A DNA stretch of 64,000 nt from Escherichia coli. GTDB lineage: Bacteria; Pseudomonadota; Gammaproteobacteria; Enterobacterales; Enterobacteriaceae. A model generated the notes under the pieces. That model did not search any database and was not told where the DNA came from. It worked only from the letters and a program-made list of their open reading frames with translations. Location of the stretch: assembly GCF_024700885.2 (NCBI RefSeq), contig NZ_CP117016.1, one strand, 5' to 3'. A program made the translations under genes and the position numbers. Position 1 is the stretch's first letter; each line of letters opens with the position of its first letter. Shown here piece after piece: positions 34,973 to 35,038 of the stretch.

Positions 34973-34987
34973 TGGGGTCAGGGCACC

Positions 34988-35020
34988 AAAAAAAACCGCC
35001 GAACATGTCGGCGGCTTTCT
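34988..35020. terminator. Bidirectional rho-independent terminator between yfbM and the end of the nuo operon
   Basis: A8 - ccgccgaacatgtcggcgg - CTTTCT; 16 nt after yfbM stop and 19 nt after nuoN stop. Confidence 0.8.
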
Positions 35021-35038
35021 GACTTACGAACTGACAGC

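Follow-up and report, generated by a model that had tools for sequence, protein, structure and literature searches.

The yfbM-nuoN junction of an Escherichia coli strain is probably a small variable site in its unoccupied state

INTRODUCTION

Bidirectional Rho-independent terminators between convergent genes form a known class. Small strain-specific islets are likewise familiar in the core intergenic regions of E. coli: they are present or absent at a fixed position, low in G+C and made up of genes of unknown function, and a single spot can hold alternative cargo or receive insertion sequences (IS). The yfbM-nuoN junction invites comparison with both classes and with the b2272-b2276 locus of K-12 MG1655, where the RefSeq annotation (NC_000913.3) places yfbN (b2273), yfbO (b2274) and yfbP (b2275) between yfbM and nuoN. 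A literature search found no paper on the junction or its terminator, and no 3'-end mapping data for it.

Here we analyse this junction in a 64,000-nucleotide stretch of E. coli DNA (contig NZ_CP117016.1), referred to as the window. A preliminary description, made from the sequence alone, had reported that yfbM directly abuts nuoN with a bidirectional terminator between them, had placed yfbN, yfbO and yfbP at this point in K-12, and had assigned the strain a compact form of the junction. We compared the window with K-12, with complete E. coli genomes and with other Escherichia lineages. The junction belongs to the majority form in E. coli and is most likely ancestral; its terminator is predicted to serve chiefly the nuo operon.

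RESULTS

Anatomy of the junction in the window and in K-12

The genes and elements in and around the junction are the following (yfbM and nuoN from the list of open reading frames).

31782..33005, upstream of yfbL: ElaD-like gene
33396..34370, upstream of yfbM: yfbL, peptidase M28 (Pfam)
34469..34972, plus strand: yfbM, 167 aa, intact, DUF1877 protein
34973..35038, no strand: yfbM-nuoN spacer (putative 'empty site'), 66 bp between convergent genes
34974..34990, no strand: filler GGGGTCAGGGCACCAAA, 17 bp without a blastn match to K-12, which has 2,561 bp there
34988..34995, no strand: A8 tract 5' of the hairpin, equivalent on the minus strand to the U8 tail of the predicted nuo terminator
34996..35014, no strand: predicted terminator hairpin, CCGCCGA-ACATG-TCGGCGG, with a 7-bp stem (6 G-C pairs and 1 A-U pair) and a 5-nt loop
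35015..35022, plus strand: tail CTTTCTGA, a weak U-tract for termination of the yfbM transcript
35039..36496, minus strand: nuoN, 485 aa, NADH:quinone oxidoreductase subunit N, last gene of the nuoA-N operon

The yfbM product matches DUF1877 in Pfam (E=4e-35) and the PDB entry 1RYL, 'Hypothetical protein yfbM' (E=1e-107), and RefSeq names the gene yfbM in E. coli strain 1190, whose locus is identical. In the RefSeq loci that were fetched, nuoN is annotated as WP_000156701.1. The yfbM stop falls at 34972 and the nuoN stop at 35039, so that the distance of 66 bp first reported is correct to the base, and the one terminator described between them corresponds to a single hairpin at 34996..35014. 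Read on the plus strand, the spacer consists of T, GGGGTCAGGGCACC, A8, the hairpin, CTTTCTGA and a final 16 bases to the nuoN stop. It contains no ORF of at least 40 aa able to be yfbN, yfbO or yfbP, and a BLAST comparison of the whole 64-kb window with K-12 detected none of the K-12 yfbN/yfbO/yfbP DNA. Rfam, searched at permissive E-values, returned no RNA family above its gathering score in the spacer; the sub-threshold noise included sroD (18.6 bits, cut-off 50), ryfA (18.3 bits, cut-off 80) and fluoride (16.1 bits, cut-off 34).

The same two stop codons are 2,610 bp apart in K-12, against 66 bp in the window, and the three genes named for K-12 are indeed annotated there. The break points can be placed to the base between the same flanks with and without the insert. 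BLAST matches window 33136-34973 to K-12, ending one base past the yfbM stop, and the match resumes at the terminator A-tract (window 34991-36991); K-12 carries 2,561 bp in place of the 17 bp at 34974-34990. With homology interrupted in this way, the assignment of the strain to the compact form holds. On the nuo side (window 34991 onward) identity to K-12 is 98.2-98.3%. The yfbL-yfbM side is 92.4% identical overall because it includes a divergent stretch of ~300 bp by the yfbK deletion described below; outside that stretch the value is about 95-99%. The two loci are alike in that yfbL, yfbM and nuoN through nuoA are collinear and the same terminator hairpin stands beside nuoN, although the K-12 A-tract is shortened to A5. 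They differ in that the 17 bp of the window correspond in K-12 to the 3' remnant of an SMI1/KNR4-like gene together with yfbN, yfbO and yfbP. The composition of the K-12 insert is atypical, with a G+C content of 0.32-0.46 compared with 0.52-0.62 in nuoN/nuoM.

The compact junction among complete genomes

We searched 5,426 complete E. coli genomes for the compact junction. It was contiguous in 4,309 of them with a 1,032-bp query spanning the junction and in 4,211 with a tight 141-bp query; O157:H7, O111:H8, ST131 and NC101 are among the compact genomes. The K-12 insert sequence was found in 1,015 of the 5,426 (19%), at an identity of at least 99% in 985, and was covered to at least 80% in 946. 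The compact form is therefore that of the majority of complete E. coli (78-79%) and the K-12 form that of a minority (about 19%). Of the 5,423 genomes that matched, about 100 belong to neither group, being neither among the 4,309 compact ones nor among the 1,015 with K-12 insert sequence.

Over the 1,032-bp junction query only 27 genomes reach an identity of at least 99%, and over a 601-bp query covering the yfbK junction 53 do. One perfect match is strain 1190, a canine isolate from Edinburgh, whose finished chromosome (NZ_CP023386.1) is 100% identical to the window over 34469-35500 and 32900-33500. That the compact junction is an artefact of assembly or sampling, a collapsed or misjoined region, has virtually no probability: no observation speaks for it, and it is refuted by the perfect agreement of the tested stretches with the strain 1190 chromosome and by the occurrence of the same junction in more than 4,200 complete genomes. 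The polymorphism is real and ordinary, and can be seen in thousands of annotated RefSeq genomes.

Occupied junctions share one boundary

Junctions that carry additional DNA are modular, with at least four variants assembled from an SMI1/KNR4-like gene, yfbN, yfbO and yfbP.

WL297 form: a 191-aa ORF, a yfbN homologue and a symmetric A7-hairpin-T7 terminator
A16 form: a truncated SMI1/KNR4 gene, yfbN and yfbO
FDAARGOS_144 form: yfbN and yfbO
K-12 form: as FDAARGOS_144, with a yfbP module of 942 bp added after the yfbO stop and ahead of the terminator

Every insert extends from the yfbM stop codon to the terminator A-tract. The gene sets and left ends differ between WL297, A16, FDAARGOS_144 and Escherichia sp. 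MOD1-EC7003, and all four stop at the same A-tract and hairpin. The SMI1/KNR4-like gene is intact in WL297 (locus 4624..5199, 191 aa). In K-12 an unannotated 3' remnant of such a gene, ~135 bp long, lies between yfbM and yfbN (K-12 locus about 9581..9716).

The encoded proteins gave few database matches. RefSeq names copies related to the 191-aa ORF SMI1/KNR4 family, and the match of the ORF itself to Pfam SMI1_KNR4 is sub-threshold (E=0.0016, 19.4 bits, cut-off 25.4). Sub-threshold Pfam matches were also all that was obtained for YfbN (UBA-like) and YfbP (TPR); YfbO had no Pfam match, and NCBIfam returned no meaningful match. BLASTP among the islet proteins found no significant similarity and hence no paralogy. 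PADLOC assigned no family to YfbN, YfbO, YfbP, the SMI1/KNR4-like ORF, YfbM, YfbL, YfbK or ElaD, so the locus does not present as a known anti-phage defence system. The sole clue to function comes from a preprint in which an overexpression screen picked out yfbN as a 'blocker' of a retron toxin, yfbO being included on account of its linkage (10.1101/2020.06.22.160242).

A speculative and rather unlikely extension of these observations is that the bases between the yfbM stop and the nuo A-tract are a recurrent entry point, where a modular, fast-diverging cassette family (alleles 78-92% identical) was built and eroded stepwise and where IS200 inserted in one E. coli and one E. albertii genome. 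The cassette might be an orphan immunity- or antitoxin-like set, an idea thinly supported by the SMI1/KNR4 (SUKH) label and the blocker score of yfbN. If this were true, the window would represent the naive, empty site, and the idea would concern the cargo of other strains more than the window itself.

Mobile elements and repeats at the junction

We looked for signatures of a mobile-element-borne island and found no integrase, att site, tRNA, target-site duplication or transposon ends. There is no tRNA in window 30000-40000, and the annotations of the islet genes include no integrase or transposase. In three islet types that were searched, no convincing direct or terminal inverted repeats flank the insert, only short matches that often arise by chance; a duplication of 6-7 nt at the WL297 islet (GCACAAT / CACCAT) was set aside as too short to weigh. 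YfbN had no match in phage records, and in plasmid records it matched one 365-kb E. coli 'plasmid' record and, distantly, two Hymenobacter sequences, which gives no sign of a mobile-element origin. The junction insert thus resembles the small intergenic islets of E. coli in being present or absent at a fixed position, in its low G+C and genes of unknown function, and in the alternative cargo and IS insertions found at one spot. It differs from them in having no integrase, tRNA, att-like repeat, or link to a phage or true plasmid, and the window itself offers the empty site only.

Insertion sequences have nevertheless reached the junction in individual strains. An IS200 (tnpA, Y1 transposase) lies inside the nuo A-tract, upstream of the hairpin, in E. 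coli 4069 (locus 3277..4055), and the same A-tract insertion is found in E. albertii TW07627 (locus 6505..7278); by eye the ends of the element are alike at the two sites. In Res13-Lact-PEB14-36 (locus 3839..5893) an IS5 is located between a truncated elaD and the nuo terminator. This genome lacks everything from the 3' end of elaD up to and including yfbP, consistent with an IS5-mediated deletion, except that the last 43 bp of a K-12-type insert are left beside nuoN.

FDAARGOS_144 contains a 16-nt imperfect direct repeat, CGGTTATTGTTGGGTG (3480..3495) and CGGTTATTTGTTGGTG (5078..5093), at the 3' ends of yfbM and yfbO. The repeat is close to both islet boundaries and may be due to chance.

Polarity of the change

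The length of the compact spacer is nearly constant. It measures 66 bp in O157:H7, O111:H8, Ecol_732 and strain 1190 and 68 bp in 14EC007; outside E. coli it measures 68 bp in E. whittamii and 66 bp in SCPM-O-B-8794, a divergent Escherichia lineage that is a GTDB species representative. The contig of the E. albertii species representative ends 14 bp past yfbM, and a look-up of the exact YfbM protein was used instead. Of the six other E. albertii places obtained in this way, five have a 63-bp spacer with an identical hairpin, and in the sixth an IS200-type element interrupts the spacer. The filler is alike in the fetched compact alleles, with few SNPs, and is more diverged in E. albertii. The empty state is therefore present in outgroups (E. 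albertii, E. whittamii and SCPM-O-B-8794). One occupied outgroup was also found, as MOD1-EC7003, a non-coli lineage, has the islet.

A single junction structure across species points to one old state, not to repeated clean deletions, and because the compact form is shared across species we regard it as ancestral and treat the K-12 form as having gained DNA. Very probably, then, window 34973..35038 represents the ancestral, empty state of a small variable site bordering the 3' end of nuo; that K-12-like lineages gained the insert is what we infer from this distribution.

The opposite polarity would require that the ancestor of E. coli had the yfbN/O/P islet and that the lineage of the window, with most others, lost it cleanly. 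Several observations fit such a history. Islet alleles differ by 8-22% (78-92% identity), more than the core flanks, and a divergence this deep implies an old islet. Islets also decay, as K-12 retains only the 3' remnant of the SMI1/KNR4-like gene and the A16 copy is truncated; the IS5 of Res13-Lact-PEB14-36 has apparently deleted elaD through yfbP; and the direct repeat of FDAARGOS_144 joins the 3' ends of yfbM and yfbO. We nevertheless judge a derived compact junction improbable. Every compact junction examined, from several E. coli lineages, E. albertii, E. whittamii and SCPM-O-B-8794, has the same 63-68 bp architecture, whereas independent deletions would differ in their end points. Moreover, the 66 bp of the window hold no islet remnant, and the sole clear deletion, the IS5-mediated one, looks quite different.

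With the compact form still taken as ancestral, the divergence of the islet alleles and the occupied junction of MOD1-EC7003 indicate that the occupied state is old too. The islet has probably moved among lineages by homologous recombination in the flanks. The flanks of WL297 are somewhat more diverged than usual.

Asymmetry of the terminator

The preliminary description called the hairpin bidirectional, which holds for the nuo strand, where hairpin and U8 are both present, and is doubtful for the yfbM strand, where the tail is weak. The setting is that of a shared terminator: the genes are convergent and have one common hairpin, at a distance of 23 nt from the stop of yfbM and 24 nt from that of nuoN. 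A U-tract, in contrast, is not found on both strands; the A8 lies 5' of the hairpin and the tract 3' of it is poor. On the nuo strand U8 follows the stem immediately, in canonical fashion, and the minus-strand RNA of the spacer (66 nt) has a folding energy of -26.4 kcal/mol (z = -4.4), which none of 200 shuffles equalled. The tail on the yfbM strand, CUUUCUGA, is interrupted and has 4 U in 8, and the fold there is indistinguishable from shuffles (z = -1.7), of which 13 in 200 did equally well.

A consensus promoter/terminator scan of 34300-35300 called no terminators on either strand and no promoters. Its T-tract rule demands at least 5 T in 8, of which the plus-strand tail falls short; for the nuo strand we can only guess that the stem was perhaps extended into the A/U tracts, using up the U run. 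We did not accept the blank scan as proof of absence, since a hairpin followed by U8 is evident both from the folds and from the sequence itself. By textbook standards the hairpin is a canonical predicted intrinsic terminator of the nuoA-N operon, on the minus strand only, and it would be expected to be active in termination there.

Whether the same hairpin could end the nuo and yfbM transcripts at similar efficiency deserves consideration, and we regard this as conceivable but somewhat doubtful. The arrangement of the genes and the nearly equal distances to the two stops speak for it, as does a hairpin core of equal stability on each strand (-11.8 and -11.7 kcal/mol). The WL297 allele, with its symmetric A7-hairpin-T7, further indicates that the site can hold a true bidirectional terminator. 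In the window, on the other hand, the interrupted plus-strand tail has to be set against U8 on the minus strand, the plus-strand fold does not stand out from its shuffles, and the consensus scan was blank. The label 'bidirectional' is accordingly supported only in part, owing to the weak U-tract of the yfbM strand.

The fetched loci of E. albertii, E. whittamii and SCPM-O-B-8794 all have the identical hairpin sequence, as do most of those from E. coli. K-12 and 14EC007 have a loop variant, and WL297 has a different loop. The nuo terminator allele of WL297 (locus 6006..6037) is a perfect palindrome, TAAAAAAACCGCCGA-AA-TCGGCGGTTTTTTTA, that folds with z = -8.1 on the plus strand and -5.5 on the minus strand. 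By its predicted structure the WL297 terminator is truly symmetric and bidirectional, unlike the asymmetric one of the window. Compared with intrinsic terminators of convergent genes, the window element is typical in its G+C-rich 7-bp stem, its 5-nt loop and the A-tract on one side that gives U8 to nuo; it is atypical in the poor U-tract of the yfbM strand, which makes it asymmetric where WL297 has A7/T7.

Further variation in the window

Several other differences from K-12 were observed in the window. Within 33006..33395 yfbK is deleted, with 20 bp (33116..33135) replacing 1,556 bp of K-12 (NC_000913 2384035-2385590); what remains of the gene is about 130 bp at its 5' end and about 40 bp at its 3' end. 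The yfbK-deleted junction is contiguous in 2,577 of the 5,426 complete E. coli genomes and is also present in O157:H7, 14EC007 and WL297; it is thus another common polymorphism. Next to it, window 33136..about 33430 (the 5' remnant of yfbK, the yfbK-yfbL intergenic region and the start of yfbL) has ~68-83% identity to K-12, O111 and FDAARGOS_144. The E. albertii loci have no elaD at this place; there, rbn is followed by a full-length yfbK (586 aa), yfbL, yfbM and nuoN.

Two differences lie farther away. An IS200/IS605-family element of 1,762 bp occupies window 9351..11112 within yfaX (rhmR), with two ORFs named from reading their translations.

9391..10560, minus strand: tnpB-like ORF, 389 aa
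10617..11042, plus strand: Y1 tnpA-like ORF, 141 aa

Also absent are the neighbouring 1,727 bp of K-12 (2359991-2361717), which cover rhmD, part of yfaX and the 5' part of yfaV/rhmT, and insertion and loss together leave the L-rhamnonate operon broken in this strain. In the region of the rpnE 3' end and ypaA, window 6872..6908 has 37 bp where K-12 has 172 bp, with short repeats; the RpnE-like ORF (6085..7047) encodes 320 aa, compared with 299 aa in K-12.

DISCUSSION

The comparisons above suggest the following course of events at this site. K-12 belongs to a minority of E. coli in which an islet of low G+C would have entered between the yfbM stop and the terminator A-tract; the terminator is kept in every form of the junction. 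The strain of the window presumably never acquired the islet, or at least retains no trace of it. In its compact state yfbM and nuoN share one G+C-rich hairpin, which is predicted to end the nuoA-N transcript on the nuo strand; for yfbM transcripts, in which only a poor U-tract comes after the hairpin, termination is probably less efficient. The hairpins of the window and of WL297 therefore offer a clean pair of alleles for testing what makes a terminator bidirectional.

For E. coli more broadly, K-12 is not the reference state for the yfbM-nuoN junction. The genes yfbN, yfbO and yfbP are accessory, being carried by roughly one in five complete genomes; in the usual arrangement the end of the nuo operon directly adjoins that of yfbM. 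This is of use for annotation transfer and for pangenome bookkeeping.
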